A stretch of 64,000 bases of DNA. It comes from a virus. Each line of letters opens with the position of its first letter. The first letter of the stretch is position 1. Position numbers and translations under genes: made by a program. Shown one piece after another: positions 30,436 through 48,561 of the stretch. Under the pieces are notes generated by a model. It saw nothing but the letters and a program-made list of their open reading frames with translations. It was not told the DNA's origin and did not search any database. The stretch is from IMG/VR virus record IMGVR_UViG_3300044712_000083, positions 50,192 through 114,191 of that record; one strand, given 5' to 3'.

Positions 30436-33400
30436 TTAATCTTGGTATTTATCTAACCAGCCGCCTGGTTGTTTAGTGTTGTAATTAGTAAAGTTAGTTA
30501 ATTGGTCCAGCTTTGTCAACTGTCCTCCTTGTTTCATCATAGGGTACTCTGTAACAGAATCTCCAATGTATTGATACTCTTGGTTAGGATACATCATTTG
30601 CATGTCTCCTGTGTCAGATATACCTAGTACAGGATAAGGTACACCTTTCATTGTTATCTTATTAGATTTGATCTTAGTAACTTTTCCAGGATGAGCCCAT
30701 TGTCCCATATCATCTTCAATCACAGAACCGTTCTTAGAGATTGATTTAGGTTTGAAGTCTAAACCATTCTGATAAAACTGCATTCCATTTTGTGCCATAG
30801 GTAATCCTTGTTGAGGATCATTGGCTGCAATAGTATTTAATAGTTCAACAACATCCTCAGGACTCATTATTTTTAAAAGATCTCTTAGTCCAGAGACTTT
30901 ACCTTTTAAACTATTAACATGTTCAAGTGTAGCTTTATCTGTTTTAGGATCATAATACTGATATTGATTATCACTTGATTTAAAACCTGAACCAAAACCT
31001 GAACCAGAAGATTGAGCACCTACATTATTACTTTCATCATTTTTTATTAATAAAGGATATTTCTTCAATGCTCCACGAATCTCTTGAAGTCTACCTGTAA
31101 CTTCTGTTGGCTCACTTAAATACCTATATTTATCCACACCAACCTTTTCTAACTTCTTACTTACTTGTTCAGAAGTTCCCATTGTTTTATTAGAAATTAA
31201 ATTCTTTTCATACTCAGTTAGATATCTTCCCCCATCATCATAAGCATGTCTAAATTCATGTCTTACTGTATTTCCAAATTCATCAATACCATACTTATCT
31301 AAATTATCACTTAATGATATTAATGCACCTTTATTTTCAGGATCATAGTAACCAAGTACAGGACCTGTACCACTAGCTGTTCCACTACCTGTAACAAACT
31401 CTACTGTAGGATTAGCTAATTTACTTTCTCTTTTAACAAGTAGTTCCTTTGTTCTTTTATCTAAAGCATCTTTATCTACAGCACCTAAATCAATATTTTG
31501 TTCAGCAGCCATATCATGTCTAACTGCATCTTCAAGCATGTTATATCTAAACTTAGATCTACCTTCTTCAATAATATCCAAAGGTGCTCTATTCATTATC
31601 TCTTCTTCTTGCTTAATTCTTCTTTTATTTTTTGTAGTTGATTGTTTAACAGGTTCTGTTTCATTTAATTCTATACCATCTACTGCAGAAGGTAATGTCT
31701 TCTTAGCATACGGACCATTGCTAGGAGCAGGATTGTTTGTACGTGCGTATGTGAATCCTACAGCTCCTGGAAGAGAGCCCCCCATTGCATAATCTCTAGT
31801 TTTAAATAGTAAAGGAATGTTCTTATTCTTTTCTACATAGTCATGTCTAAACTTAGCAAAGTCTTCAGCAGATTGTATAGTTTTAAATGGACCACCTAAA
31901 TGTTCTCCTGTAAAATTAAACAATCCTTCAGGATCCTCCACTAATCTTCCTTGTTTAAATCCTGGAACTAAGTAGTACTCACCATCTTTACCAACTGTTG
32001 TAGAATACTCTGTAGATATTCCGTTTTCTCTTGGATTATATCCAATATTTTGAAAAGTTTGAGTTGGTTGTAAGAACTTCTTAACAGGTCCACCATCTTC
32101 AAACTGTCCTCCCCATGCAGGAGAATAGTTACGTCCTACGTTACTATATCCACTACCTTCATATCCTTCAGGAGCTGAGACTGTATAGTTGTTAGCATTT
32201 AAGTCTCCACCATCTTCATACTTATCTAACCAACCTCCTTCTTTAAATTGTAAGAATGGTTTAGTAAGTTTAATCTCAGTAGTTGGAGTTATAGAATTGA
32301 TAGGAGCATGTTGCTTAATATTGCTCTTTACTTTATTTAAGTAATCAAATCCTTCAAACTTTGGGTTATCTTTAAACTCATAGAAGTAATCTACAAGTTC
32401 TTGATTGTTAGCTTTACTTGGAGAGTTCCAAGATAACGTAGCCATATCATATAACTTCTGATCACTCCAATCAGGATGCTTCTTTGCTAATGAATTTTTT
32501 AAATCATAGAAGTTAGCTATTGCTGCAGTTAATTCATTTTCAGCACTGTTGTAAAAATCATTCTTACCACCTTTACCTATTTTTAAATCTCCTTCAGTTA
32601 AACCTAATCTCTTTGCTGTTTTAGATAAGTATTTTTGTCTAAATGTACCAACAGATGGATCTGTATTAGATAAAGCAAAAGGCTTTGGTCTATTATAAGT
32701 AGTAGTATATAAACTCTCCAATGCTTCATTAAATGAAATACCTTCTTTCTCTGCTAGTTTACTAGCTTCCATTTGCATTTTACTTTTGCCAGGAAATTCT
32801 AATAAATCTGGATTCTCTACATATTTTCTATTGCCATATTCTTTAACAGCATTTATAACTTCCTTAACAGGTTTAGTTAATCCTACTTCTCTTAATTTAT
32901 CTTGAATTAGTACTTTGGCTTTAGTTAAACCTTTTGCCATTTTACCAGACATCTTAGATTCTTGGATACCAATACCTAATACATGTCTGAAGATTTGATC
33001 AAGCTCATCTGCATGAATACCTAAGTTACCAATTAATGTAGGTTTTATTTTATCATAAACTTCTTTATAAGGTTCTAGTTCTGGACTCACTCCAAAATCT
33101 ATTGTACCTGTATTTAAGTTTATATCATTTAGAATAGCTCTCTTTGCAATCTCTTTGGACTTACCTACAAATTGCTGAGGTCTAACAATACTTCTAATTC
33201 CTCGATTAGAAGCAGCATTATAATAAACATTGTTTTGTATAGGCACAGTAATTAACCTACCATCAAAACTTTCACCAATCAATAGATTATTTCCATCTGG
33301 ACTCATGCCCACAACAGTTGCTCTATGATTAACACGTGGTTCTTTAAGATTTCCAGTAAGAGGAGATTGTTGAGGATGTGCAAGAAATGCGTCTGGACCA

Positions 33401-36099
33401 AACATCACTTGATCACCAACTTGTACATTTTTTAAAATATCCGAATTAAGTGGTCCGTGTGTACCTTCATTATATACTAACTCTCCCTCATTCTTTAACA
33501 TCTGATATGTAGTGTACCAAGCATTGTCTGCATTAGCAGCATAGTTATATGCTTCACCAGGAAGTATTTGTCTACTAACACTTGATGCTATAGAATTTGC
33601 AATCTTTGCACATTCTGCATCAGATCCACACCCATGCATTAATTTATTTCTCTGGTATAGATGACTTAAGTTTTTATCATATACTAGTTTCTTAAATTCT
33701 TTACTTGTTTTATAACCTGTTGGAAATAACCCACTACCAGACCCTGGTTCATAAATAGGTAGCTTGTATTGTTCTGCTAATTCTGGATAAGCATCCAAAT
33801 GCTGATCTATACTGCTAGAAAAGTCTCTACCTATATTAGTGTCAAATAAATCATCTATAATATGAGAAGGTCTTATGTAACGCTTTGGCTCAGCACTAGT
33901 ATTAATACTAGGTGTTCTACGCAGTGCACTAACTGCTTCTCCTAAAGTAGATCTTACTCCTGGTAATGCAGATGCTACAAACGGTAAAGCATTTAATGCT
34001 GTATATCCTGTTTGCAAAGATGCATCTGCTATATTTCCTGAAGTAGGATCTTTAAAAGCTTTCTTAACTGACTGTGCAACATTAGGTATATTATTAGCTG
34101 CCTCATATGCAAATCCAGCATTCAAAAGATTATTAGCAGTTAATCCTGCTACTCCAGCTATAGGAGCTTCCATTGCTGCTCCTATGTATGGTAATATTGC
34201 AGGACCAGCTACAGCACCCGCAGCTATGGCAGGAGTTGTATACATGAACTGATTAGCAGCTACATCACCTGCTGTTGGATTGTATCCAGTAGGGGTTAAT
34301 GAACCAAAGGTTTGGGCAAGCTGAGAGTTATTAATCATATCTTGTCTCTCTCTAGCTTTTTTAACTGCAGCTCTTTGAGAAGGTGATATGTTATCTGCAG
34401 AAATATATGTTTGTCTTTTAGCAGCTTCTGCAGCAAGTCTAGCTTTTTCTATCTCAGCATCTCTTGCTATTTCTTCTTTAGTCTTTAGACGTACTTTAGC
34501 TGGTTGTTGTACAGTTACAGCATCTTTCTTAGCAACAGTACCACTATATTGATATTTATCTAACTCACCCCCATTCTTGTATGGATTAAGAATAGATGTT
34601 GTAATTTCTGAAGGACCTGTTGTATTTTCTACACGTCTAATCAATCCTTTAGGTAATAATATTTCAGATTCATTAGGGAATTTACTATAACTTGTTGCAT
34701 TAGGAAATGCATAAGATTGCATTCTGCCACCTGGAAGAATTATATTATCTAAGAATTTATATTCATTTTGGTGATCCATGTTGTAAAAACTAGTAGGTAA
34801 TGATGTAGATAAAAACTCATTGTCTTTATATATATCTCCCACTTGTAATTCTGATCTACGTTTTTTACCAAGAAATGAATTAGTATTAGGATCAATTAAA
34901 TTTACATCGTAGTTATTAACTGTTCTATTAACTACTGTTTCTTTATTAATTTTATTTTTTAAAATTGCATCATTTAATCTATCAGATAATGTTGTAAAAT
35001 GATTTATTAAATTTTCAGGTAATTTTCCAGTTGCGGATACTCTATTATTAAAATAAGGATAATAACTTTCTGTATAAGCACCCATCAATGCTCGTTCTTC
35101 TGGAGTTAGTTTAGAAAGATCATAACCTTCAGTATCATAGAATTGCTTAGAGGCAACACCTCTTAGATCATAATTACCAGACTTCATGAAACTGTGTTCA
35201 GGAGCTATATAATCATTTATAGTATATTGTGGCAATCGATCTGCAACTCTTAATCTCATGTTCAATAACATAGCTTGATCAACAGCCTCTCGTGCGTTAA
35301 AATCTCCTTGACTGATTAAGTCAGGTCTTAGTTCATCAACTGCTTTATTATATATTTCCTTTAATTCCTTATCTGAAAACTTAGTAAAATCATTTCCAAG
35401 TGCTCGTTTAGCAAATTCTATATGTTGAGTAGGTTGATAATCAGAGATAGGTCTACCATATTTTTGATGTACGTTACGAGATACACCTGCTGCTTCTTGT
35501 AAAACATCATTAGTAGTATTAGCTACTTGACCAGCATCAGCAATATAATCTGTTACACCTGCAACTTTTGCAGCATTAGCTGGAATATTTGCAGCATTAG
35601 CAAATGGTCTATATGCTGCTAATCCTAATCCTGTAAGTCCCGCATTAAGTAAAGCAGAACCATAGTTACCTTGCAATGCATCTCTTCCTCCTAAATAACT
35701 AGAACCAGCCATGCTTAATAATGTACCAGCACCTTCAAGATATGGGGAAGCAGGTCCTGTGATTGGAGCAATCAGTTCTAGTCCACCGCCAATATATTGA
35801 GCCTTATTAGCAACATCGTCATACATCTTTTGTCTCTGCTCTTGTGTAGCTATGTCTTCCATAGCTTGCTTCATAGCAGGAGAAGCAGATGTACCTAGTT
35901 TATTAATGTAAGTTTTTCTCTTAGCTACCTCCTCATTAAACTTATCTTTTCGATTAGCTTCTATTCTTTTCAATTCTTGAGAATCCAATACCTTTGGAAT
36001 AACTACTTTATCTTTCTTAACAGTAGTTAATCCAAATGGATCTAAATTACCATCGTAAGCATATTTATCTAACCAACCTGAAGATTTCTGCTTTCCCAT
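30436..36099 (-). CDS. Polyvalent cargo protein: ADP-ribosyltransferase, Cys-His amidase-like, lysozyme-like and zincin metallopeptidase domains
   Basis: ART: R...FLSTS...ESEILLPKG. Amidase-like: ECAKIAN...NAW...NHRATVVG. Lysozyme-like: GIQES...SVGTFRQ...SWNSP. Zincin: HEFRH...EPTEVTGR. The GWLDKY/GELDKY motif occurs 4 times. Confidence 0.75.
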   Translation of the reverse strand: MGKQKSSGWLDKYAYDGNLDPFGLTTVKKDKVVIPKVLDSQELKRIEANRKDKFNEEVAKRKTYINKLGTSASPAMKQAMEDIATQEQRQKMYDDVANKAQYIGGGLELIAPITGPASPYLEGAGTLLSMAGSSYLGGRDALQGNYGSALLNAGLTGLGLAAYRPFANAANIPANAAKVAGVTDYIADAGQVANTTNDVLQEAAGVSRNVHQKYGRPISDYQPTQHIEFAKRALGNDFTKFSDKELKEIYNKAVDELRPDLISQGDFNAREAVDQAMLLNMRLRVADRLPQYTINDYIAPEHSFMKSGNYDLRGVASKQFYDTEGYDLSKLTPEERALMGAYTESYYPYFNNRVSATGKLPENLINHFTTLSDRLNDAILKNKINKETVVNRTVNNYDVNLIDPNTNSFLGKKRRSELQVGDIYKDNEFLSTSLPTSFYNMDHQNEYKFLDNIILPGGRMQSYAFPNATSYSKFPNESEILLPKGLIRRVENTTGPSEITTSILNPYKNGGELDKYQYSGTVAKKDAVTVQQPAKVRLKTKEEIARDAEIEKARLAAEAAKRQTYISADNISPSQRAAVKKARERQDMINNSQLAQTFGSLTPTGYNPTAGDVAANQFMYTTPAIAAGAVAGPAILPYIGAAMEAPIAGVAGLTANNLLNAGFAYEAANNIPNVAQSVKKAFKDPTSGNIADASLQTGYTALNALPFVASALPGVRSTLGEAVSALRRTPSINTSAEPKRYIRPSHIIDDLFDTNIGRDFSSSIDQHLDAYPELAEQYKLPIYEPGSGSGLFPTGYKTSKEFKKLVYDKNLSHLYQRNKLMHGCGSDAECAKIANSIASSVSRQILPGEAYNYAANADNAWYTTYQMLKNEGELVYNEGTHGPLNSDILKNVQVGDQVMFGPDAFLAHPQQSPLTGNLKEPRVNHRATVVGMSPDGNNLLIGESFDGRLITVPIQNNVYYNAASNRGIRSIVRPQQFVGKSKEIAKRAILNDINLNTGTIDFGVSPELEPYKEVYDKIKPTLIGNLGIHADELDQIFRHVLGIGIQESKMSGKMAKGLTKAKVLIQDKLREVGLTKPVKEVINAVKEYGNRKYVENPDLLEFPGKSKMQMEASKLAEKEGISFNEALESLYTTTYNRPKPFALSNTDPSVGTFRQKYLSKTAKRLGLTEGDLKIGKGGKNDFYNSAENELTAAIANFYDLKNSLAKKHPDWSDQKLYDMATLSWNSPSKANNQELVDYFYEFKDNPKFEGFDYLNKVKSNIKQHAPINSITPTTEIKLTKPFLQFKEGGWLDKYEDGGDLNANNYTVSAPEGYEGSGYSNVGRNYSPAWGGQFEDGGPVKKFLQPTQTFQNIGYNPRENGISTEYSTTVGKDGEYYLVPGFKQGRLVEDPEGLFNFTGEHLGGPFKTIQSAEDFAKFRHDYVEKNKNIPLLFKTRDYAMGGSLPGAVGFTYARTNNPAPSNGPYAKKTLPSAVDGIELNETEPVKQSTTKNKRRIKQEEEIMNRAPLDIIEEGRSKFRYNMLEDAVRHDMAAEQNIDLGAVDKDALDKRTKELLVKRESKLANPTVEFVTGSGTASGTGPVLGYYDPENKGALISLSDNLDKYGIDEFGNTVRHEFRHAYDDGGRYLTEYEKNLISNKTMGTSEQVSKKLEKVGVDKYRYLSEPTEVTGRLQEIRGALKKYPLLIKNDESNNVGAQSSGSGFGSGFKSSDNQYQYYDPKTDKATLEHVNSLKGKVSGLRDLLKIMSPEDVVELLNTIAANDPQQGLPMAQNGMQFYQNGLDFKPKSISKNGSVIEDDMGQWAHPGKVTKIKSNKITMKGVPYPVLGISDTGDMQMMYPNQEYQYIGDSVTEYPMMKQGGQLTKLDQLTNFTNYNTKQPGGWLDKYQD

Positions 36100-36100
36100 A

Positions 36101-36967
36101 TTACTTGTAAGAGATTTGACTTGGAGCTAAAATGAATTGAGATACTAAATGAACTGTAGAACTATTATCTAAAATGTGTCTCACTTTTAAATCTTTAGCT
36201 CGTAGAGGTGCTTTGTTAAATGAACGTGTAGTATAATCTAAATTGCTTAGATTAAGCTCTTTATCTATTGATAAAGATTGACAAGTTGTACCGAACATTG
36301 GCTGGTTTGGATTCTTAAGAATAGACCAGAAAGTATTGTATTGATAGAAGTTGTCGGATTTGGTTACTAATATACTCTTACTATCGTTAAAATACAAGGG
36401 GTAAGCCATATATGCAGCAAGATTATTTTGTGGTTTAGGTACCAAGTTCAATAAACCTGTACATTGCTGACCATTATATAGGATAGCTTTGTTAAAATAT
36501 TTATTAGTTTGGATTACTGCATTGTCATTAAATACACCATCTGGTATAGGAAGATATTCGTAAGCTTTAGTAAAGTCTACAATATTTTGTAAAATCTCAT
36601 CTTGTACTTGATAAGCTATTGGATACTCAATAATGTATGGCTCAACATTACCATAGAACTTGTTATAGTTAATAACATCAGTTAAATGTCTCCATAGAGA
36701 TGTTGTATTAGTAGGAGTGAATACAATATTATTAATCTGAGCATTTGTTAAGTATTGAATATCAATGGACTTAACTGTCTTACACTTACCTATAGATGAC
36801 AATACAATCTTAGTCGCAGCGTCACTTACATTATTATAAGTGACACCAAGAATCAATTGTTGTTTTGTAACACCGCCCCCTAAAAACGTTCCGATATTAT
36901 CTCGAACGTCAAATGGACCGACACCATCTCCAGCACTTTCTAATTTTACAATTACTGTTTTAGGCAT
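36101..36967 (-). CDS. GPF-type small domain fused to the probable C-terminal part of the muzzle/tail stabilisation protein
   Basis: The N-terminal ~70 aa are paralogous to the N-termini of 47283..47897 and 47923..48561. They are followed by SLWRH...YNKFYG...PYIIEYP...FNKAILYN. Confidence 0.6.
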   Translation of the reverse strand: MPKTVIVKLESAGDGVGPFDVRDNIGTFLGGGVTKQQLILGVTYNNVSDAATKIVLSSIGKCKTVKSIDIQYLTNAQINNIVFTPTNTTSLWRHLTDVINYNKFYGNVEPYIIEYPIAYQVQDEILQNIVDFTKAYEYLPIPDGVFNDNAVIQTNKYFNKAILYNGQQCTGLLNLVPKPQNNLAAYMAYPLYFNDSKSILVTKSDNFYQYNTFWSILKNPNQPMFGTTCQSLSIDKELNLSNLDYTTRSFNKAPLRAKDLKVRHILDNSSTVHLVSQFILAPSQISYK

Positions 36968-36985
36968 TTTCTTTTCTTTTATTTA

Positions 36986-39900
36986 TTAGCAGATTCCATC
37001 TGATATCACTGTACCACCTGTATTCAATTGAATATATCCGTTGTCAGTGTTGTAATATCCAGATCCTAATGTAGATGATCCAATTGAATCTGTGTAGATT
37101 GTTTTACCTATACTAGGAACACCACCTGTACAGTATGCTAATTGATCTACAGCTCTTGTACAAACATTGACAGGCGTTCCAACTGTACTGATATAGAATG
37201 GATCATATGAAGGAGGTACGTATCCACATGTAGGGCTATTAACTTCAACTACTTGTTGATTTCTTGTAGCACTTGTACATGAGTTAACTTCTTGGCTCCA
37301 TAGAGTAAATCCTACACAGTAGTATTGTAAATCCCAAGTACCACAGCTTTCGCTCACTGTACCTGTATCAATTGTTCTTGTAGTTCCTGCAGCACAAGGA
37401 TTAGTTTGTACTTGATCTTGACGTAATGTACATGATCCTGTTATGCAATATGCATTTCCTGAATTAACCCAAACTGGAGTAGTGTCAGGATAAGAGTTAG
37501 AAGGATTAGTTGATTGCCATGTTCCACCTACTAAATAGATGTTAGCTCCTGTGTAACAAGGATTGCTATTAACATAAACTGGAGTTGAATTAACTGTACC
37601 ACTTGAACATGTGTAGTATGTACCTACTTGACCTCCTTGGGTTTGAGTGTTACTAGCACCGCAAGCACCACTACATGTTACATCGTAAGTGTTACCTGTT
37701 GGATTACCATTACAGTAGTATTTCTCAATGAAACGCTGTGTTGTTCCTAAACAAATGTAATCTGTGTAGTAAGTTCCGTTACATGCTTCATTACACTGAC
37801 AAGAGCAATTACTAATTACATAAGATGAACTTTCTCCACAGTCATTGATTGTAGGTTGAATCAATGCGTTTCCACTACATATTGGAGATCCCGAAGGTAC
37901 ATAATTTTGTCTATTATACAATGTAAATGTTAAATTATTACCAGCAGTTAATGTAACAGTTGATCCACTGCCGTATGACGATCCATTAAGTATAGCTGAA
38001 CAAACATAGAAACCATCATAGTCTACACGAATTGTAGTTCCTACAGGATAACTTCTAGAACCTCCATCCCAACTAGGATCTGCAGTACCATTGATATAAG
38101 GTGTGTAAGAACTAACATTCAATCCATTTAACGGATTCAATGTTACTGTTACAGGAGCAATAGTAGTACTTGTAGTAGTAGTACTGCTTGGAGGTACAGT
38201 GGTACTAGTTGATGTAGTAGATGTTGAGCTAGTACTTGTTGTTGTACTTGTACTAACAGGATTCATATAAAGTGTAATAGGATCACTAAGGTTAGTACAT
38301 GCTGCACTACCAACATATGCTTGAATAAAGTTACCAGTAGGAGTACCATCCCAATCAACATTAATTGTCTGACTTCCTGCAGAATTAAATGTTAATGATA
38401 TAGGAGTTCTAGTTCCACCAGCAATTGAAGTACCGACTACAATTGGATATGAAGTAGAGCTAGGAGCACTCATTGTAACTGTGTAAACAGCAGATTCAAA
38501 TGGTGCTACTGTTGTAGGTCCTGTGAATGTCCAATCACCATTTACAATCGGCACACATGCAAGCGTTGTACTTGTACTAGTTGTAGAAGTAGAAGTAGAA
38601 GTAGACGTACTTGTTGAAGTAGATGTACTAGATGTAGATGTTGAAGTAGATGTTGTAGGTCCTACATATTCTGTTGTTGTACTAGTAGTAGTTGAAGTAG
38701 GTCCTGAGGTAGTACTAGTAGTGGTACTTGTAGTTGGAGTTAGAGTACTTGTAGTACTTGTAGTTGGAACTATTGTAGTAGTAGTACTAGTTGTAGGAGC
38801 AATAGTAGTAGATGTGCTTGTAGTTGAAGTAGTAGATGTACTTGATGTTGACGTAGATGTTGAAGTCGAAGTAGATGTACTAGTTGAACTTGTAGAACTT
38901 GTTGTAGAAGTTGTTGTTGGAGTGTAGTTTATAGCATCAATAGTAAACACACAACCTTCTTTAACTGCATTTCCTACCAACTGACAAGGAGTTACATATG
39001 ACGCACTACCATTCAATGAACAATAAACATCTATTGGTCCAAATGTAGTTGAAGTAGTTGTAGTAGATGTACCAAGAATTGTACTAGTTGTAGTAGTAGT
39101 TGATGGTCCTACATATGCAGTGGTAGTTGTTGTAGTAGTTAATCCTGATGCAATAGCAGAAAAATCACAACCTTGATTGTTTCCAGAATAGAAGAAGTTA
39201 TTCTCAGCAATGTAATAGTTAGGAATATAACTATGGAAAGAGATCCAACTCTTTGTATTCATGTTGTAAGACAATGTCCATGACTTATTACAGAAGTATG
39301 TAATGTCATTTAACTGAACAACCTCTTTAATTGTAGTATTTCCTGCAATAGGATAGATGTAATATTCTTTATAGTAACCTACTTGTGCAGGATCTGTACC
39401 ATAGAAAATCTTACCAACCCAATTTGGTTGTGGGATGTAGTCAAGTTTAGTGATAATGATTCTATCAAATTTAGAATCATACACACCTGTTAAACCAACC
39501 TTAGTATAATTGTTATCTACATCAGCTTCAGGGAAGTAACGTAAGATTTCAAATGCTAAATGGTCAGTCATAAAACGATTGACACCTGAACCAAATGCAG
39601 ATAAGTCCACAACTTGTGTTCCTGTTACTAAGAATATCTGTCCACGTTTAGCATCAATTGTTACTTGTCCATTAGGAATCTTTAGCAACATCTTGTGTTG
39701 AGATCCTACATATCCTAAATCTGTCTCAGCAAAATCAATTGGAGGAGCAGATCTAAACAATGTAGAATTACCAATATAAGCAGCTTGTGGATTGCTTGTA
39801 TCGATTGTAAGCATTGTGTTGTATAACAATGACTTATTCTCAAAACGAGCTAAGATAGCCTTGTTTTGGATACCATCTAATGATGTAAGCTTTCCGTATG

Positions 39901-42900
39901 TTTGAGGGAAATCAAAGAAAGAAGCAGGTCTATACAATAACCAGTTATTCACCTTACTTGTAGAAGATGGATCTTGTTGATCTGAATATATAGCTCTAAA
40001 CGGAAACTCTTTTTCACAAGCACTATTTGTCCAATTTAAAGGAAGGTGTGAGAAGAAGTTCTCTGTATTCTGTTTAGAATAACTTAAGTTGTAGTAGTAT
40101 GTATTATCTACTGCAATAGGTACTCTAACTTGTTGCAACCAATCATCAGGAATACCAGAACTTACACGAGGGTAGAAGTTACCTTCATTACCATTATATG
40201 CTTGACGCAAGTCTAAGTTGATAGAACTCTCACAATAGAAGTAAGGAATTCCATACGCAAACATATACATCTTACCATCGTAGAATGATTGAGTATTACT
40301 TAAACTTGTAGCTCCATCATAATTAGTACCACTAGGTGGGGTTGGTGTAGTTGGTGTACTTGTATATATAGGATCAGAAGGGCAATCAAAACAATGTGCT
40401 TTGATTGAAATAAAATTTGTTAATGTATCACTTCCTAAAACAATATCACTCAAAACAGAACGAGATGAATGCCAGTATTGAGGATAAGCAATATTACCTA
40501 ATTGATCATAATTAATATCTGAATCATCTGGAGCTAATACCCTATTGTCAATAAAGAATGGAAGTTTAGTTTTAAATGCAAACTTACCAATGAATGTATC
40601 ACCACCAAATATAGTTTTAACTCCTGTAGGAGAATCTCTATCTACTTGGAATCCTGTATCAATTGTTTCGTATGTATAGAGTTGTCCCCATTGATTACGA
40701 ACAACATTCTTAATTGATGCATAGTAAGATACAACCTTAATAGATTGTAACTCTTCAGGAACTGCACATTTCTTTTTCTGTGATAATGTAAATCTAGAAT
40801 CATCAGAGATTTTACCAGCAATAGAATCTATATCATTTGGAAATCTAAGAGGAATAACTGTAGTAGTGTTATCACTACGCTTTTCTATAGTTTTTAAATA
40901 AACAGATGACTCACGTTGGAAGTTATTAAGATCCCAAGTATCTCCTACTGATTGTACGCCTGGATATACATATTGATACTTATCAAGTTGTCTTTGCTTA
41001 ACACCATCACCGTTCTGAATATTTCCAAAATAGTCATAACTTGCAATTGAGTTGAATGAGTATGCAAAGTTTTTTCTAGTAATTCCACTAATATAAATCT
41101 GTAGATAAGATTGGTATGCAGCAAATACAGCATTCATATCTCCATCTGCTATAGCATAGCTAGAAACTAATGCTTTTTGTTGAATAGCTTTTGTAATTAG
41201 CTTATAACTTGCATTACTTTTAACAGGAACAAAATGTGCTTTTCCTGCTCCATACATTACATTCTCAAGCTTCAATACATCTCCTAATGTAGGTTGTCCA
41301 AACGATGTTTCAGGAGAGTTAAATACTTGTCTGTATTTAGTTTCATTATTAATCTGACCACCTGGCTCATTGTTTACAGTAAAACCAGTGAATTTTTTAG
41401 GATAACATTCAGGATTAAATGAATCTGTAGATGTTGTTATATAATTCTTTGATCCACTTACATATGTTAACTTTGCACCAATTGGAAATCCAGGAATTTC
41501 AATATATTCAACAAGAACAGTTTTTGGAGAATCTGCTACAGTAACTGTTATTTCTTTAGTAGCTCCATCTGCATACGGATCTCCATATGTAAATTTAGTA
41601 GAATCTAAAGCTCCGTCTTGATTTACAACAATAGTAACGACAGTTGTATATTTCCCAATGTATGGACTAAATATGTTACATACTAATCCACCTGTTTTTT
41701 GTGGAAATGTAGTTGAGCAAACATATTGTGGCTCCGTTTGAGCAACAATATTAATTGTTTTTACTTCATTAGTAAAACAGTCATTATAAATTAATGAGCC
41801 AGGAGATGTAACACCAGTAATCTTATACTTCTCCGATTGACCACTATATGCATTGTTTTGCTTAAGTAAGAACGGATCTGTGTTAAGATCGTTATATGGA
41901 TAGTTAGGATAATAGTAGTATGTAGGATTAGGAGAACTTGATTCATCTCTTGTATATCTACCTACGTTTCTTAAAATACCCTTTGCAACAATAGATTTGT
42001 TTGTATTACGATTACCACGGACAATCTTATATCCAGCAATTTCGTTTCTTTGTTCAGGAGTTAAGTATGTCTGAATTAATGATTCAATCTGTGCTGTGTC
42101 AACTCTAATACCAAGTGGGTAGATAGCATTAGCAGATTTCATCTCCACTTGATACTTACCTGCAACTTCGACAGGAGTAGCACTTTCAAATGCAGGACTT
42201 ACTAAAATATCAGGAAACTTGTGATGACGAATTGGTCCTGTTAATCCTGCTTCTGTAAATACTGGTCCTTTATATTCTTCAGTTGATTGCCAGAATGCAA
42301 AATCACCATATTGATATGGTGTTGCACCATTAATTGTTGGTCCTGTAGCAGCAACCCCATTACCTGCAGTGTTATACACTTTCCAACGATCAAGTGGTTG
42401 CAATGTATCATCCTCAGCAATATAGTCTGGATTACTTTTATCAACTTTAGGATTTATATCTGAATCTTTAATTGCTCTTCCTGGAATATGGAAACCATCT
42501 GTCTGCTTACCATTCTTTAACAAGAATACAATCTCAAATGCATATACCTCATCACGTAGATAACCACGTAAATTAAGTGCATTTAATTCATCTGCATAGT
42601 TTTGCCCTGCTGCCATTTTGTATGACTGCCATTGCAATGTAATTCTAGCAGCAACTTTTTGATAGTCAACTCTATTATTAGATTTTAATCCATCCCAAAT
42701 CAAAACATCCTGTACAGAAGTTACATCATTGGCAATATCATAGTATGGATACTTCTCAAAGATTTCTTCAATAGCTACAGCAATTGGAGTTTTGTTTTGT
42801 CCAGAATAGATGACAGTATTTTTACCAGTAGTTGCACCAGTTTCAGCAGGAATTTTATCAATTAAGTATGTACCTAATAACTCAGCAGAAGTTGCATTAT

Positions 42901-43720
42901 TAACTGTTTTAATTACAGCAACATTGTAATAATCAAAGTAACCTTTGATATCAATGTTAGTAATAGTAAGCTGAATAGACTTGTTAACTTGATAGTTGAA
43001 GTCTTGTGTTTCTACAGTTGTATTAGCAATAGGAAGAGGATTCGTAACAGAATAATAAGATGTATATCCTGCTCCTGTAGAACTACAATACTGAATAGCA
43101 AACTGATATGTACCAGCAATCAACTCTCCACCATTTAAAACATCTGTAACTGAAAGTTGAGGGATGTCAAAATTAGGTTGGATATTTAAAATATTACAAT
43201 CAGTTAATTCATTATCATCAGTATCAAATCTACCTAAGTCTAAATATCTACGAGGGTTTTTACCATCAGTCCAATATATCTCAATAGAAGGCTCATCATC
43301 AATTACACAATTTGCAACCTTATGTACAACTTTATGTATAGGATAGTTTACATCAAAGTTCAAACATGCTCCTTTGACGTATGTATGATATTTACAATCA
43401 TTATTAACCATGTAACCAATCTGATATTCAGGATTGATTGAACTAGGTTTCATTAAAAAGAAAACATGTTTATTCTGTTCAGGAATAAAATGTTTACCAA
43501 TTAAAATAAAATTATCAGGAAACTTTACGCATAGCTCATTACCTGCTTCATTCTGATAGTTAACAGAATTAGCATCAAAGTTTTCTACAGCAGCATTCAA
43601 TGCGTAAGTTAAACTTCCTTTAGGTATTTGTGCTACTGCACTATCTAAATTCAGTCCTGTTTGTGCAAAGTTATACTCGTTAGTAACGTTACCCTGATTA
43701 GTTGTTTCTTCTGCGGCCAT
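36986..43720 (-). CDS. Muzzle / tail stabilisation protein (N-terminal part) with a Thr/Ser-rich and Cys-rich C-terminal extension
   Basis: LTYALNA...NEAGN, CLNF...PI, YWTDGKNPRR, RGYLRDEVY, FGGDTFI, DAKRG and WTLSY...WISFHSYIP. It follows the ring-protein gene, as in crAss-like tail modules. Confidence 0.75.
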   Translation of the reverse strand: MAAEETTNQGNVTNEYNFAQTGLNLDSAVAQIPKGSLTYALNAAVENFDANSVNYQNEAGNELCVKFPDNFILIGKHFIPEQNKHVFFLMKPSSINPEYQIGYMVNNDCKYHTYVKGACLNFDVNYPIHKVVHKVANCVIDDEPSIEIYWTDGKNPRRYLDLGRFDTDDNELTDCNILNIQPNFDIPQLSVTDVLNGGELIAGTYQFAIQYCSSTGAGYTSYYSVTNPLPIANTTVETQDFNYQVNKSIQLTITNIDIKGYFDYYNVAVIKTVNNATSAELLGTYLIDKIPAETGATTGKNTVIYSGQNKTPIAVAIEEIFEKYPYYDIANDVTSVQDVLIWDGLKSNNRVDYQKVAARITLQWQSYKMAAGQNYADELNALNLRGYLRDEVYAFEIVFLLKNGKQTDGFHIPGRAIKDSDINPKVDKSNPDYIAEDDTLQPLDRWKVYNTAGNGVAATGPTINGATPYQYGDFAFWQSTEEYKGPVFTEAGLTGPIRHHKFPDILVSPAFESATPVEVAGKYQVEMKSANAIYPLGIRVDTAQIESLIQTYLTPEQRNEIAGYKIVRGNRNTNKSIVAKGILRNVGRYTRDESSSPNPTYYYYPNYPYNDLNTDPFLLKQNNAYSGQSEKYKITGVTSPGSLIYNDCFTNEVKTINIVAQTEPQYVCSTTFPQKTGGLVCNIFSPYIGKYTTVVTIVVNQDGALDSTKFTYGDPYADGATKEITVTVADSPKTVLVEYIEIPGFPIGAKLTYVSGSKNYITTSTDSFNPECYPKKFTGFTVNNEPGGQINNETKYRQVFNSPETSFGQPTLGDVLKLENVMYGAGKAHFVPVKSNASYKLITKAIQQKALVSSYAIADGDMNAVFAAYQSYLQIYISGITRKNFAYSFNSIASYDYFGNIQNGDGVKQRQLDKYQYVYPGVQSVGDTWDLNNFQRESSVYLKTIEKRSDNTTTVIPLRFPNDIDSIAGKISDDSRFTLSQKKKCAVPEELQSIKVVSYYASIKNVVRNQWGQLYTYETIDTGFQVDRDSPTGVKTIFGGDTFIGKFAFKTKLPFFIDNRVLAPDDSDINYDQLGNIAYPQYWHSSRSVLSDIVLGSDTLTNFISIKAHCFDCPSDPIYTSTPTTPTPPSGTNYDGATSLSNTQSFYDGKMYMFAYGIPYFYCESSINLDLRQAYNGNEGNFYPRVSSGIPDDWLQQVRVPIAVDNTYYYNLSYSKQNTENFFSHLPLNWTNSACEKEFPFRAIYSDQQDPSSTSKVNNWLLYRPASFFDFPQTYGKLTSLDGIQNKAILARFENKSLLYNTMLTIDTSNPQAAYIGNSTLFRSAPPIDFAETDLGYVGSQHKMLLKIPNGQVTIDAKRGQIFLVTGTQVVDLSAFGSGVNRFMTDHLAFEILRYFPEADVDNNYTKVGLTGVYDSKFDRIIITKLDYIPQPNWVGKIFYGTDPAQVGYYKEYYIYPIAGNTTIKEVVQLNDITYFCNKSWTLSYNMNTKSWISFHSYIPNYYIAENNFFYSGNNQGCDFSAIASGLTTTTTTTAYVGPSTTTTTSTILGTSTTTTSTTFGPIDVYCSLNGSASYVTPCQLVGNAVKEGCVFTIDAINYTPTTTSTTSSTSSTSTSTSTSTSTSTSSTSTTSTTSTSTTIAPTTSTTTTIVPTTSTTSTLTPTTSTTTSTTSGPTSTTTSTTTEYVGPTTSTSTSTSSTSTSTSTSTSTSTSTTSTSTTLACVPIVNGDWTFTGPTTVAPFESAVYTVTMSAPSSTSYPIVVGTSIAGGTRTPISLTFNSAGSQTINVDWDGTPTGNFIQAYVGSAACTNLSDPITLYMNPVSTSTTTSTSSTSTTSTSTTVPPSSTTTTSTTIAPVTVTLNPLNGLNVSSYTPYINGTADPSWDGGSRSYPVGTTIRVDYDGFYVCSAILNGSSYGSGSTVTLTAGNNLTFTLYNRQNYVPSGSPICSGNALIQPTINDCGESSSYVISNCSCQCNEACNGTYYTDYICLGTTQRFIEKYYCNGNPTGNTYDVTCSGACGASNTQTQGGQVGTYYTCSSGTVNSTPVYVNSNPCYTGANIYLVGGTWQSTNPSNSYPDTTPVWVNSGNAYCITGSCTLRQDQVQTNPCAAGTTRTIDTGTVSESCGTWDLQYYCVGFTLWSQEVNSCTSATRNQQVVEVNSPTCGYVPPSYDPFYISTVGTPVNVCTRAVDQLAYCTGGVPSIGKTIYTDSIGSSTLGSGYYNTDNGYIQLNTGGTVISDGIC
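38160..39145 (-). repeat. Low-complexity Thr/Ser codon tracts (mucin-like) inside the muzzle gene
   Basis: Three tracts at about 38160-38260, 38560-38925 and 39040-39145 encode TTSTTSSTSSTSTST-type sequence. Confidence 0.9.
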
Positions 43721-44672
43721 ATCGGTTTGTTCTGTTTGGCAGTTCGTACATGTTGAACCTGTTCAGGTCATTCTTAATTCTGCGTTGTTTATCCCAAGCA
43801 GTTTGTTTCTTTATTTCAATATCGGCCATAATGAATGCCTCTTCAGAAAGTTGCTTATAATAAGCAAGCTTCTGTTGTATTTGTTGGAACGTTTCATCTG
43901 TTAATTGGTTGGAAAGCATTTCAAACACTTTGTATTTAATGAACGCTTCTATGTATTCACGAATACGATAGTTATCAGGAATCAACTGATTACCAATTTC
44001 ATCATATTCTGTAGCATAGAATACTAAGTGTACAATGCCATTTCTAAAATTAGTTACGAATTTATTATCTCTAATATCAAATGATCCATATCCAGAAGAT
44101 CCTGGAGTGAAATTAGCTCTGGTAGCCGCTGCTGTACCATTATCCCATGCAGAAGTGTAAGATAAATCACAATTGCCTCTTGCAGAGATATTACCTGGTT
44201 GAAGTAAATATTCTTTAGTGTACAAGTTTGCAGCACTATTGTTTGTCTTGTAAACAGTCTGAATTAACTCAGGCATACATTGTCCATCACAGCCTACATT
44301 AGCGCAGCTAGGATTAGTACAAGAGCCATCTTGTGTAGTGATTGGACTAACTTGTATAGTTGTAGCAGTAAATGCTTGAGAATAGAAAGAACTAGCCTCC
44401 TGGTAAGTGTTACCATATACTGATGTACACATCCAAGCTTCTCTTACAGCATAGAAGTTATCTGGAAGACGAGCTTCAAAATCCATAACATCAAGAGGCT
44501 GCTCTGCAATAACATAAGTAGTTCTACCTAACTTACGTAGACACTTGTCTAAATAAGTGGGAAACAATAAATCATCAACAGCTCCTGTATCAAAGTAGCT
44601 TTTTAATTCTTCCTTTACTGTAGCATATACAGGCTCAGGAGAAACAAAATCATATTTATAGTAGTATGACAT
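43698..44672 (-). CDS. Tail ring / tubular protein
   Basis: ARLPDNF...IRDNKFVTNFRNGIVHLVFYATEYDEIGNQLIPD...EAFIKYK. Synteny places it between the HU-like gene and the muzzle. Confidence 0.7.
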   Translation of the reverse strand: MSYYYKYDFVSPEPVYATVKEELKSYFDTGAVDDLLFPTYLDKCLRKLGRTTYVIAEQPLDVMDFEARLPDNFYAVREAWMCTSVYGNTYQEASSFYSQAFTATTIQVSPITTQDGSCTNPSCANVGCDGQCMPELIQTVYKTNNSAANLYTKEYLLQPGNISARGNCDLSYTSAWDNGTAAATRANFTPGSSGYGSFDIRDNKFVTNFRNGIVHLVFYATEYDEIGNQLIPDNYRIREYIEAFIKYKVFEMLSNQLTDETFQQIQQKLAYYKQLSEEAFIMADIEIKKQTAWDKQRRIKNDLNRFNMYELPNRTNRYGRRRNN

Positions 44673-45161: not shown

Positions 45162-45884
45162 TTAGCTTCCAGGTAATGTATTAGGAGATTGTCCATCCAA
45201 GTTGTCTGATGTAATATCCTGTTTTAGTTTGAAGTAGGTTTGTAATAATTTCTGTGATGTAAGTTCTAGCACTTGTTTTTCTAAATATCCTGGAACACCA
45301 TACTCTTTATCTAATGGATTCTTACAATAGTCATTAGGATCAGGAGTTACTCCTGAACATGGAGCAAACATAATATCGCTACTAACATCACTTTCAAAGA
45401 ATGCAGCAATTCTAGCTTTCTGTAATAATGGATTACTAACATATAAATAATCATTAATAATCCAGTAATAAGACTCATTCTTAATAATAGGAAGCTTAAG
45501 GAGATTCATGTAACGATTGATAGTAATCTCCTTATATCTAGTTCCTTTTCCTCCCATAGCATTAATAGACCACACACCTTGGATAAGATATTGATAGTTA
45601 CCTTCTGATATACGAGGAAGTTTAAATTTGCTTCTAGCAACTGTACAAGGATCTTTATAATCGCAACATTCTGCAATAGGTACAGGTATCATCTCTAAAC
45701 ACGGAATGGTTGTAAACAATGTATCTGTAGCCCATAATCTGCGAAGATTAGTCTCTCGCTTTACTAACATGATAGTATTGTTCTTAACTTCAGAGGCAAT
45801 AGCTCTATCTGTTATCAACCCATCTGTTGATAATAATTTGTGCATAGAACGCACGTCTGAAACTAATTTTCTTAATGTTGCCAT
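45162..45884 (-). CDS. Tail ring (adaptor) protein
   Basis: CLEMIPV...RSKFKLP...YYWIINDYLY...FES...DKEYGVP. Assigned partly by synteny. Confidence 0.6.
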   Translation of the reverse strand: MATLRKLVSDVRSMHKLLSTDGLITDRAIASEVKNNTIMLVKRETNLRRLWATDTLFTTIPCLEMIPVPIAECCDYKDPCTVARSKFKLPRISEGNYQYLIQGVWSINAMGGKGTRYKEITINRYMNLLKLPIIKNESYYWIINDYLYVSNPLLQKARIAAFFESDVSSDIMFAPCSGVTPDPNDYCKNPLDKEYGVPGYLEKQVLELTSQKLLQTYFKLKQDITSDNLDGQSPNTLPGS

Positions 45885-45885
45885 T

Positions 45886-47109
45886 TTATATTCTTGATTC
45901 GAATTCTGCTATCTTACCATGGATAAAATCATAAACCAATGCTAAGCCAGCTCTAATACTGTGTACAAAGTTGTTGTCAGAATGCCAACGGTCTGTACCA
46001 GACAAGCTAGGCATTTGTTGGATTCTAACACCTTTGACTTCCTTAGCCATGTAATGGTGTTTATCTCCTGTGTGAACCTCACGATATACGGAAGCACCAA
46101 ACTTATATCCGTAATCTTTGTGAGTTGCAAATAATAAAGGAAGATCATCCAACTTACAGTTACCATGATGATAACCAATGAATGTATTCCCTAATACAAC
46201 TGCTTTTATTAATGATGTTGTTCTATCAAAATATACAGTAGGATCTTCACTATAATAAACTGATAACGCATGTGCTAAGTAATATGACTTAGTTCTGTCA
46301 TGATTTCCTTGCACTAAGATAACTTCAACAGCATCTGCATTAGACTTAAGGAAATCAATTGCTTGTACTAACAAATCAAATCCATGTTCATACTCTTCTG
46401 CATAGTCAGCAATTGTATCTTGTGGAGTACCTGCTGTTGTAGAATTCTGATAATTATCTGTATGAAAGAAGTCATTTGATATAGGAAACACAATTGTGTC
46501 AATGTTATATACAGAACGAACATTCTTTACTAACTCTTGCACCACGTGCATGTATGCTGCTTTTCTAACATTAATATCATTGTTACCATCAATCACTTTC
46601 TTTGCTAAGTGAAAATCAGATAAAGATATTTCTACAGCTACTGTTTTCTTATCTTCATCATGCTTTACAACATCACAAACAACATGTTGTGGTTTATAAT
46701 TTTGTAAGAACTTAGCAAAATCTTCTGGAGTGTAATCCTGTGGTTTCTTTAGTTTAGAGAATACAGAGGATGTAAACTTACCACTTGGTAAAACCTTTGA
46801 CCAGTAGTTAGTAATAACATATTTGTCAAGGTTAATCTTGTGTAATGCTGCTAATTCAAGATCATCTTTAGGTTCGTAATCTAACACTAATGTGCTTTCT
46901 AACGTTCCTTTCTCGTTATTTACTTTACGAGTAGAAGAGATGTATTCTGCAATCTCTTCCTCAACAGTTGAGTCCTTACCTCTCAACTCTTTTAATAATT
47001 CTTCAACTTCACCTTCCGTAATTTGTAGCTTTTCAGCCATAAATTTCTTACTCTTTTTCCAACTTAAAAGCTTTTCAAGCTGAAACAATAGGTTTTGGTC
47101 TTGAGCCAT
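45886..47109 (-). CDS. Calcineurin-like metallophosphoesterase with N-terminal HTH-like segment
   Basis: SDFH, NDFFH, GNHD, HHG and GDKHH metal-binding motifs in canonical order. Confidence 0.85.
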   Translation of the reverse strand: MAQDQNLLFQLEKLLSWKKSKKFMAEKLQITEGEVEELLKELRGKDSTVEEEIAEYISSTRKVNNEKGTLESTLVLDYEPKDDLELAALHKINLDKYVITNYWSKVLPSGKFTSSVFSKLKKPQDYTPEDFAKFLQNYKPQHVVCDVVKHDEDKKTVAVEISLSDFHLAKKVIDGNNDINVRKAAYMHVVQELVKNVRSVYNIDTIVFPISNDFFHTDNYQNSTTAGTPQDTIADYAEEYEHGFDLLVQAIDFLKSNADAVEVILVQGNHDRTKSYYLAHALSVYYSEDPTVYFDRTTSLIKAVVLGNTFIGYHHGNCKLDDLPLLFATHKDYGYKFGASVYREVHTGDKHHYMAKEVKGVRIQQMPSLSGTDRWHSDNNFVHSIRAGLALVYDFIHGKIAEFESRI

Positions 47110-47282: not shown

Positions 47283-47897
47283 TTAAGCACAGGTTCCTCC
47301 ACCTAGGTTAACACCGTTGTTAGAAATCTGAACGTATCTACCAATAGCAGTATAGTTGTAGAACAATCCATCACCATTGAACGGTGCATTGCTATTCTGA
47401 GATACATAGAATATTGTATTAGCTCCAAAGTTAGGATTATCTGCCCATAGTGTAATTGTTGGAACTGCAGAAGCACATGCACCAGCAGCATCATCATATC
47501 CAGCTGTTACTTCAAATAAATAAATATGAGGAACAATTGTAGTAGTTGATGTTGTAGTACTACTAGTTGAACTTGTTGATGTAGTTGATGTACTTGTAGA
47601 AGTAGATGTTGAACTAGTGGTAGTAGTTGTAGAAGGCCCTACGTATTGAGTTGTAGTAGTTGTTGTAGTGCTAGGTTGTCCAGCAATAAATAAATCTACA
47701 GAAGTTGTACAAGTTCCTGTAGACTGTACACGAATAGTAGAAGCTCCATCGGGAACAGTTGTTACCATTAATCCACTAACTAAAGAAGCTTTAGATACAC
47801 CTGTTTGAAAAGGTGTAACAAAACCATCAAGATTTGAATATAGATTAAATGGTCCTGTGTTAGTACCTGCAATTGTTAATGTTACTAAAACATTCAT
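47283..47897 (-). CDS. Small virion decoration-like protein: GPF domain, Thr/Ser linker, Cys-flanked C-terminal domain
   Basis: AGTNTGPFNLYSN...STGTC, then a ~45-aa T/S tract and a C-terminal domain resembling the last ~75 aa of 36986..43720. Confidence 0.6.
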   Translation of the reverse strand: MNVLVTLTIAGTNTGPFNLYSNLDGFVTPFQTGVSKASLVSGLMVTTVPDGASTIRVQSTGTCTTSVDLFIAGQPSTTTTTTTQYVGPSTTTTTSSTSTSTSTSTTSTSSTSSTTTSTTTIVPHIYLFEVTAGYDDAAGACASAVPTITLWADNPNFGANTIFYVSQNSNAPFNGDGLFYNYTAIGRYVQISNNGVNLGGGTCA

Positions 47898-47922: not shown

Positions 47923-48561
47923 CTAGTTTGCACAAAGTGTAATAGTATGATCTGTATATATTGAACAATTAGGTTGAGCAATATAATTGTAAACTCTAAC
48001 TGTATACACTGTACCACAAGGTTTATCAGTAATAACAACTGTAGTATTTCCTGCATCTGGATCAATGAATCCCATAGGAGTTGCACAATTATTAGATCCT
48101 GTATAAGTAGATCCTACTGAATAATTATATCTTGTACCATTAGTTACATTGTATATATAAATTGTTGCCTTTGCTGGTGGAGGAAGTTCAACACTAGATA
48201 AACTAAATGTAGGATAAGGAACATAAACTGTTGTACTAGTAGATGTTGTTGAAGTTGTAGAGCTAGTACTTGTTGTAGTAGAAGTACTAGCAGGGGGAAC
48301 AGCAGTCGTTGTAGTACTTGTTGTAGGAACACCTACATAACCCTCACTCATTCCAACAATAACAGAATTACCACAAAGTCCTAAAGATGTAGCTTTAATT
48401 AATGTAGTTCCTGTAGGAACTGTAGCTAGTGTATATCCAGCAGTTAATGTAGCTTTTGGTATATTTACTGCAATAGGAGTTGTATATCCATCTACATTAG
48501 AATATAAATTAAATGGTCCAGCATCTACCCCAGAAGTAAGTAATTTTACTACTACACTCAT
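47923..48561 (-). CDS. Paralogous small decoration-like protein: GPF domain, Thr/Ser linker, different C-terminal domain
   Basis: SGVDAGPFNLYSN...SLGLC, then a T/S tract and a C-terminal domain with four Cys. Confidence 0.6.
   Translation of the reverse strand: MSVVVKLLTSGVDAGPFNLYSNVDGYTTPIAVNIPKATLTAGYTLATVPTGTTLIKATSLGLCGNSVIVGMSEGYVGVPTTSTTTTAVPPASTSTTTSTSSTTSTTSTSTTVYVPYPTFSLSSVELPPPAKATIYIYNVTNGTRYNYSVGSTYTGSNNCATPMGFIDPDAGNTTVVITDKPCGTVYTVRVYNYIAQPNCSIYTDHTITLCAN

Follow-up and report, generated by a model that had tools for sequence, protein, structure and literature searches.

The muzzle locus and its two genes

A 64,000-nucleotide stretch of viral DNA (hereafter the window), which is the right-hand 64 kb of the complete 114,191-bp record IMGVR_UViG_3300044712_000083 with direct terminal repeats, carries two adjacent open reading frames (ORFs) at the place where crassviruses encode their muzzle protein. 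The window was identified as part of a crass-like phage from the neighbouring genes for the major capsid protein (PF23898), ring protein 2 (PF25702) and ring protein 1 (PF24228). According to PMC10172136, the muzzle is highly conserved among crassviruses; a role in gating the ejection of the genome and cargo is ascribed to it. Both ORFs lie on the minus strand, one of 2244 amino acids (aa) at 36986..43720 (the N-part) and one of 288 aa at 36101..36967 (the C-part), and they are most probably, at a rough probability of 0.8, a real and functional split muzzle whose halves reassemble.

The core of the N-part (residues 1-1513; 39182..43720), delimited by its matches to PF25731, phrog_37948 and an intact homologue, ends with the strand NFFYSG; residues 1491-1513 read ...WISFHSYIPNYYIAENNFFYSG and end at window position 39182. 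It is followed by a conserved post-cut segment, NNQGCDFSAIASGL (39140..39181), and by a variable appendage on the new C-terminus (36989..39139), the latter defined by its composition and boundaries. A double stop and a 15-nucleotide (nt) A-rich spacer occupy 36968..36988, the sequence between the two ORFs being TAA TAA ATA AAA GAA AAG AAA, and the ATG of the C-part follows in the same frame. The C-part begins with MPKTVIVKLESAGDGVGPF... and comprises a conserved FN3/Ig-like 'GPF' domain with a linker (residues 1-88; 36704..36967), recognised from an AlphaFold2 (AF2) model and a hidden Markov model (HMM), and a core of residues 89-288 plus the stop codon (36101..36703), which would contain the last propeller strands and the C-terminal ring-joining part. 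The sequence SLWRH..YNKFYG..PYIIEY is read from residue 90. The gene for ring protein 1 (43698..44672, minus strand; CrAss_Ring_1, 36.9 bits, cut-off 27) lies directly upstream of the muzzle and fixes the synteny, and that for ring protein 2 lies at 45162-45884. The gene order of Ring 2, Ring 1, the two muzzle ORFs and then a protein of 1887 aa is the one in which the muzzle family is found.

The 2244-aa ORF matched the muzzle family PF25731 (crAss_MUZ) with 127.6 bits (cut-off 27) and phrog_37948 with an E value of 1e-92, and the 288-aa ORF had no Pfam or PHROG match of its own. Both could be aligned to an intact muzzle homologue of 1644 aa (P0004), which served as the reference for cut positions. 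The 2244-aa ORF aligned to residues 1-1440 of P0004 with 57% identity and residues 90-288 of the C-part to residues 1445-1644 with 65% identity, the two matches being collinear and without overlap. The initial annotation had proposed a muzzle gene split in two, and this was borne out by the alignment to intact muzzles, in which the 288-aa ORF does correspond to their extreme C-terminus. It had also placed LWRH..FYG directly after SFH.Y..FYSG in intact proteins, and rightly so: P0004 reads NFFYSGKVDVGMWRH..YYG, with NFFYSG-KVDVG-MWRH at the cut, and in the window NFFYSG closes the first muzzle-like part and SLWRH opens the second. The muzzle-like sequence, which it had placed as ending near 39180, ends at 39182 and is followed by 731 further residues.

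The same relationship was recovered in searches with the 288-aa protein (P0002) as query, since 71 intact proteins of 1441-1998 aa, many of which carry PF25731, matched only its residues ~70-288. An exhaustive HMMER search returned proteins of 1400-2285 aa that matched at their extreme C-terminus and proteins of 281-290 aa that matched over residues 1-288. Because two ORFs were found here, and likewise in all 78 informative loci described below, in place of the single polypeptide of a typical muzzle, the pair was classed as a split form of the crassvirus muzzle and an atypical member of the family.

Spread, position and possible reversal of the cut

Related loci were drawn from IMG/VR only and were the best 80 of 415 stretches encoding a relative of the C-part, taken with 10-kb flanks; 78 of them had enough upstream sequence to be informative for the cut position. 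The cut lay at P0004 1440|1445 in 78 of the 78, with a C-part of 288-289 aa in each case and an N-part tail ranging from 41 to 807 aa. Where no ORF was intercalated, the halves were separated by 1-34 nt or overlapped shortly, with an alternative upstream ATG, and they were in frame in roughly one quarter to one third of the loci, which is the chance expectation. The stop codon of the N-part was mostly TAA, but also TAG or TGA. As the gaps differ in both length and frame and the stops vary, a single shared error, read-through and recoding are ruled out. The common frame in the window, correctly seen in the initial annotation, is without further meaning, because the gaps in relatives fall in any frame and its occurrence here is therefore due to chance.

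The two-gene arrangement is fixed in a large uncultured clade. A word-index search yielded 2539 matching clusters of 158-504 aa, the best 120 of which were all 288-289 aa long with 100% coverage and 61-99% identity, and the exact C-part sequence was present on 4 contigs and a 99% twin of it on 8. The 288-aa form was not found among the cultured phages of the phage collection, where only distant intact muzzles matched residues 89-288. Two further sequences (P0266 and P0276) were short, without the FN3 domain, and started upstream of the cut; they could be fragments or represent a different cut. A position-aware count was made of the 180 positions conserved in at least 90% of 80 intact muzzle proteins; the window retained 156 of the 161 that fall in the N-part and all 19 of those in the C-part. 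The ratio of nonsynonymous to synonymous substitution rates (dN/dS), estimated by the Nei-Gojobori method from 551 pairs of related loci, was 0.105 for the C-part core and 0.31 for the FN3 domain, with mean pairwise identities of 77.5% and 53%, respectively. To judge from these sequence comparisons, both pieces are under purifying selection.

The position of the cut in the structure was determined from models. A 615-aa fragment of an intact relative (P0010, equivalent to P0004 1030-1644) was folded with an alignment of 58 sequences, and the confidence of the model was >90 from about residue 250 onward, including around the cut site. Residues 148-612 of the model matched residues 1025-1371 of phicrAss001 gp44 (7QOL/7QOK; Z score 18.1, root-mean-square deviation [rmsd] 2.6 Å, 327 residues), and the model also matched the nozzles of Pa223, SU10, P22 (gp10), VP1, Sf6 and T7 (gp12) with Z scores of 8-12. 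The cut corresponds to a three-residue turn between strands 408-412 (FYYSG) and 416-420 (GMWRH) of P0010. The model of the C-part, with a predicted local distance difference test (pLDDT) score of 84, matched gp44 1242-1364 over its residues 95-278 (Z 8.7, rmsd 2.9 Å over 121 residues). The link to gp44 was made through predicted structures, because phmmer searches of either half against the PDB sequences found no crassvirus chain.

In the domain map of gp44, the matched stretch is the portion of the seven-bladed propeller lying after the IG2/crass insertion, together with the C-terminal ring-joining part, and the distal crass domain has been proposed as the cell-contact surface (PMC10172136). 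The matches of the models to gp44 therefore point to an opened turn near gp44 residue 1240, in the proximal propeller and not in the crass domain. The cut is thus placed by the models in the C-terminal part of a nozzle-like beta-propeller, next to the ring-joining part. A loop of the tail-tip protein had been proposed in the initial annotation as the site of opening; a turn was indeed opened, but it sits in the C-terminal beta-propeller rather than in the distal tip domain. The strands flanking the cut (..NFFYSG and ..SLWRH..) are both retained, and the core of the N-part should hold, by homology to gp44, the ring-joining N-terminus, the propeller blades, the IG domains, the crass domain and most of the returning propeller.

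A second cut was present in nine loci (L053, L066-L070, L074, L076 and L077, at ~6.7-9.7 kb in each), in which the muzzle is encoded in three pieces. It lies at P0004 1390|1393, about 50 residues upstream of the main cut and again in a turn (between P0010 strands 358-361 and 364-366). The first ORF of these loci ends with ..EFYIE followed by a threonine/serine (T/S) linker and a module, and the middle ORF has a Met start, a strand-rich unit of about 50 residues running to NFFYSG, and its own T/S linker and modules. In intact homologues, the second hairpin is a hotspot of in-line inserts of 69-329 aa, and almost all of them have a short first hairpin.

A tree of the N-part (34 sequences, 1301 columns) was constructed with IQ-TREE under LG+G4 with Shimodaira-Hasegawa-like approximate likelihood ratio test (SH-aLRT) support; it was a quick search with no root inferred. 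A fully supported clade comprised 20 split and 10 intact genes, and four changes of state are the minimum compatible with its well-supported branches. Nesting of intact genes among split ones was noted for P0003-P0007, P0012 and P0014-P0019. The gene of the window grouped with seven intact genes (support 99), and P0019 and P0015/P0017 were placed deep among split genes (99). The loop of the intact P0019 (SGLNDCDGF..SATSCMWRH) looks as if the two flanks of a split gene had been fused once the intervening sequence was lost, and both the FN3 domain and the post-cut segment are homologous among all split genes. A single fission with several later re-fusions would therefore be the more economical reading of these sequences, although exchange of alleles by recombination is a possible explanation of the interleaving of split and intact genes. 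The nine three-piece muzzles, and intact genes nested inside a split clade with at least four state changes, are new findings of this study.

The two new termini

Every split N-part examined had the post-cut segment, with the consensus (L/I)N-x-G-C-D-L-x-A-I-A..EIP and a column conservation of 70-90% that includes the Cys, and the segment was absent from most intact homologues. In the split tails it was followed by a T-rich linker and then by short CxLxGTA units bracketed by Cys, of which 55 of the 60 tails had one to four copies. The shortest tail (41 aa, L005) stops right after one CxLxGTA unit. Beyond these units the tails diverge completely, over up to 807 aa, and the distal modules have been replaced wholesale among relatives whose muzzle cores are 55-66% identical.

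The 731-aa tail in the window contains three T/S linkers with 69-87% T+S. The first, at residues 1528-1562 of the 2244-aa ORF, is followed by a 37-aa Cys motif module with two CxLxGxA units (residues 1563-1599; 38924-39034, minus strand), a T/S linker of 120 aa after residue 1599 and before residue 1720, a beta-rich module called Ig-like from its sequence only (residues 1720-1821), another T/S linker between residues 1821 and 1857, a second beta-rich module (residues 1857-1938) and a Cys-rich region of 306 aa with 22 Cys (residues 1939-2244). Searches of Pfam, PHROG and the ESM Atlas, and tblastn against 50,697 phage records, returned no match to this appendage, and no module in common with the 80 related loci or with the rest of the window was found. 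A different kind of appendage was observed in L047 (7551-9971, plus strand), where most of it is made up of DUF5122 beta-propeller repeats (PF17164, E 2e-46); L047 is the only one of 11 complete genomes without a CxLxGTA unit and without a mini-fibre gene.

The Cys residues around the cut fell into two patterns. At 13 distinct junctions, two Cys follow the cut in the N-part (NGCC..) and a Cys stands in the C-part two residues before the Trp of WRH; the other 20 junctions, including that of the window, have one Cys in the N-part and none at that place in the C-part, and no mixed cases were present. In the sub-clade with the Cys pair, this hints at a disulfide across the cut. As all 13 junctions belong to one clade, the pattern counts as one evolutionary event and not as statistical proof.

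On the other side of the cut, the N-terminal stretch of the C-part was constant in length (~88 aa) in the relatives. In the AF2 model, residues 1-74 (pLDDT 85-90) form a six-stranded sandwich (strands 3-7, 19-23, 28-33, 42-47, 53-58 and 65-69). Its best structure matches were FN3, the type IX secretion system C-terminal domain, CnaB and usher domains with Z scores of 4-5.6, which is a generic range; an FN3/Ig sandwich has seven strands, and six clear ones were modelled here. No Pfam match was obtained for the domain. Residues G13, G17-P18-F19, G41, S58 and C62 were invariant in an alignment of 18 such domains. The view that variable modules were added at both new termini thus holds for the new C-terminus, but what stands at the new N-terminus is an FN3-like domain that is conserved (dN/dS 0.31) and always ~88 aa long.

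An HMM of the domain built from true split forms alone matched the N-termini of two mini-fibre ORFs located 10 kb upstream, at 47283..47897 (minus strand, E 4e-11) and 47923..48561 (minus strand, E 4.5e-7), which stand in tandem with a 25-nt spacer; it did not match the N-part of the muzzle. Restriction to true split forms matters here, as BLAST and MAFFT misalign residues 9-88 of P0002 to the pre-cut region of intact proteins. The mini-fibre genes were recovered again in the complete record. Both encode an FN3-like N-domain and a small end domain bracketed by Cys, joined by a T/S linker in which YVGP occurs, and their N-domains are paralogues of that of the C-part. At least one mini-fibre gene was present besides the C-part in 10 of the 11 complete genomes. 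Between the muzzle halves, some 20 of the 80 loci have one or two additional ORFs of 132-272 aa, and those inspected (in L001, L008, L012, L013, L014 and L022) start with this FN3-like domain. The ORF between the halves of L061 (4745-7195, plus strand) has 816 aa and is without the FN3 domain and without a family match.

The order of elements around the cut, namely linker and end domain, stop, short A-rich spacer, start and FN3 domain, is also that of the junction between tandem mini-fibre genes. Two more specific connections were tested and received no support. A correspondence of one CxLxGTA unit to each mini-fibre gene was not found, as the counts disagree in the 11 complete genomes and only presence and absence coincide, in the single genome without both. 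Recent gene conversion between the linkers of the appendage and those of the mini-fibres was likewise not supported, the identity of their DNA being only 68-79% and its complexity low. The FN3 domain was searched for inside long proteins, as would be expected of an unsplit intermediate, and none was found, which is weak evidence.

Other features of the region were observed in passing. The 1887-aa protein directly after the muzzle (30436-36099, minus strand) contains, at residues 329-493, an ADP-ribosyltransferase exoenzyme domain (PF03496, E 1.7e-9) and occupies the place of the phicrAss001 cargo proteins. A 407-aa ORF in the tail module next to ring protein 2 (45886-47109, minus strand) matched phrog_704, 'DNA repair exonuclease', over its full length (E 6e-53) and had no Pfam match at E 0.01; this is an odd location for a nuclease-like fold. 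Downstream of the cargo genes, a single frame of 4449 codons is open (11280-24629, minus strand).

Probable assembly, alternative explanations and significance

The protein of phicrAss001 that corresponds to the two ORFs, gp44 (7QOK/7QOL; PF25731; Bayfield et al. 2023, PMC10172136), belongs to the same family by sequence, fold and gene position. It is, however, a single chain of 1,3xx residues, whereas the chain in the window is cut at the equivalent of gp44 residue ~1240. Length variation of the muzzle was previously attributed to in-line insertions into the crass and IG2 regions (PMC10172136); in the window, it is a new C-terminus in the propeller that bears the variable part, and the second piece has an extra FN3-like domain at its start. 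Intact muzzles of the same clade (the P0004 type of 1641-1649 aa, P0015/P0017 and P0019) are 57-65% identical to the halves along their full length, but they have a short hairpin (13-25 residues between anchors), no appendage and no FN3 domain. In-line insertions, such as the fibre-dock insertions of T7-like nozzles, are alike in that turns at the surface of the propeller carry modules. In the split muzzle, unlike those, the module hangs from a free end rather than a loop because the chain is broken.

No two-gene muzzle was described in the literature found to mention the muzzle protein. A comparable case is the Pseudomonas podophage A1002, in which cryo-electron microscopy (cryo-EM) revealed a nozzle-rope (gp39) and a nozzle-base (gp42), with strands of the rope-bearing protein completing the platform and propeller and its long 'rope' docking fibre dimers (PMC13730344). 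In A1002, as would also hold for the split muzzle, the propeller is made from two polypeptides, one of which has a long extension; the reassembly was seen by cryo-EM in A1002 and is inferred here. A1002 differs in that it is not a crassvirus, its genes are not adjacent ordered halves and its pieces share incomplete blades, whereas in the crassvirus split the chain is cut cleanly at one turn and both halves are collinear with intact relatives. The A1002 structures were not among the structure matches listed, and A1002 was taken as an analogue only, with no sequence relationship expected. By this analogy, the genes of the window are a split crassvirus muzzle that is probably assembled like the A1002 nozzle and is not regarded as a relative of it.

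The two genes would be co-transcribed and translated from adjacent cistrons. A scan of 35900-37300 found no terminator-like site between the halves, and promoter-like sites in this interval were no more frequent than in shuffled sequence. The two polypeptides may then rebuild the propeller by strand pairing across the cut, as in the two-protein nozzle of A1002. The cut would free a C-terminus of the propeller to which a mucin-like T/S stalk is attached, with exchangeable modules of beta-rich, Cys-rich or propeller type, so that six flexible appendages may be displayed per tail; contact with the host surface is their most likely role, which is less certain than the split itself. The FN3-like domain is probably a lock or hub, serving either the conserved segment in the N-part tail or the mini-fibres, and not a displayed adhesin, although this is a guess. 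The arrangement could have arisen in one step, by insertion of DNA spanning a tandem mini-fibre junction into the hairpin, so that a stop codon, a start codon and the two new ends would have been gained together. In an extended version, the hairpins of one propeller blade-like unit would be a reversible 'socket' for fibre cassettes with a dedicated lock, the post-cut segment or the CxLxGTA units donating the missing strand to the six-stranded FN3-like domain by donor-strand complementation, and the units might recruit mini-fibres and make the muzzle a fibre hub. This extension is speculative and was judged rather unlikely.

The stops could also be thought to result from errors of sequencing or assembly, or from recent decay into a pseudogene, as the two ORFs are in frame and one nonsense change in a long in-line insertion could look alike. 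This is hardly credible, since in 78 of 78 informative loci, which stem from independent metagenomes, the N-part is followed by a 288-289-aa ORF with its own ATG. The gaps vary in length and frame, both parts are under purifying selection, exact or near-exact copies of the C-part occur on 12 contigs, and there are two consecutive TAA codons, not one. Production of one polypeptide through stop recoding, read-through or frameshifting, which the common frame might again suggest, has very little chance of being correct. Reassignment of stop codons is known in Crassvirales (PMC12386605), as of TAG or TGA in some crass-like phages. The stops here are TAA TAA, and ORFs of up to 4449 codons are open in the window under the standard code. 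Moreover, the C-part is in another frame in about two thirds of the loci, the gap often has further stops and no conserved slippery site, and some 20 loci have whole genes between the halves. The N-domain common to the C-part and the mini-fibre proteins could rather mean that the 288-aa protein has left the muzzle and is now an FN3-headed accessory like the mini-fibres, with the N-part closing the propeller otherwise. Such a change of role is improbable, because the 200-aa core is the most conserved part, keeps 19 of 19 invariant positions and resembles the C-terminus of gp44 structurally, and because the N-part alone is without the last propeller strands and the C-terminal ring-joining part. 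In addition, the C-part always adjoins the N-part or lies within ~2.5 kb of it, and paired Cys occur at the cut in one sub-clade.

The function of the appendage is less secure than the split, and several observations weigh against parts of the interpretation given above. No known binding domain was recognised in the appendage in Pfam, PHROG, the ESM Atlas or the phage tblastn search, and the term 'adhesion' is for this reason derived from composition, variability and position. The number of CxLxGTA units does not track that of mini-fibre genes in the 11 complete genomes, and the low complexity and limited similarity (68-79%) of the T/S-linker DNA bear on the proposed origin from a mini-fibre junction. 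The appendage might instead be a spacer, a shield (e.g., against host proteases or defence proteins) or an anchor like the A1002 'rope', which binds fibre dimers by beta-augmentation (PMC13730344), and the CxLxGTA units near the cut look structural rather than variable. This alternative is somewhat unlikely, since the complete turnover of distal modules is the usual pattern of receptor-binding parts and one locus has an appendage of DUF5122 propeller repeats; as regards an anchor for mini-fibres, the disagreement between the numbers of units and of mini-fibre genes also speaks against it.

A large environmental clade with muzzles of two or three polypeptides implies that the propeller tolerates cuts at defined turns, and evolution appears to use the cut to hang fast-changing appendages on the gate itself rather than on the collar fibres. 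For annotation, relatives of the C-part are labelled as hypothetical proteins where they are named at all, and an N-part would pass for a muzzle that is truncated or too long. In host-range prediction for uncultured phages, the appendage can be considered as a candidate receptor-binding part, and for structural work and engineering the cut may serve as a natural permissive site for modules on a podovirus nozzle. Split and intact genes interleaved in this way would also make an unusually clear example of a virion protein whose gene has undergone fission and fusion repeatedly.

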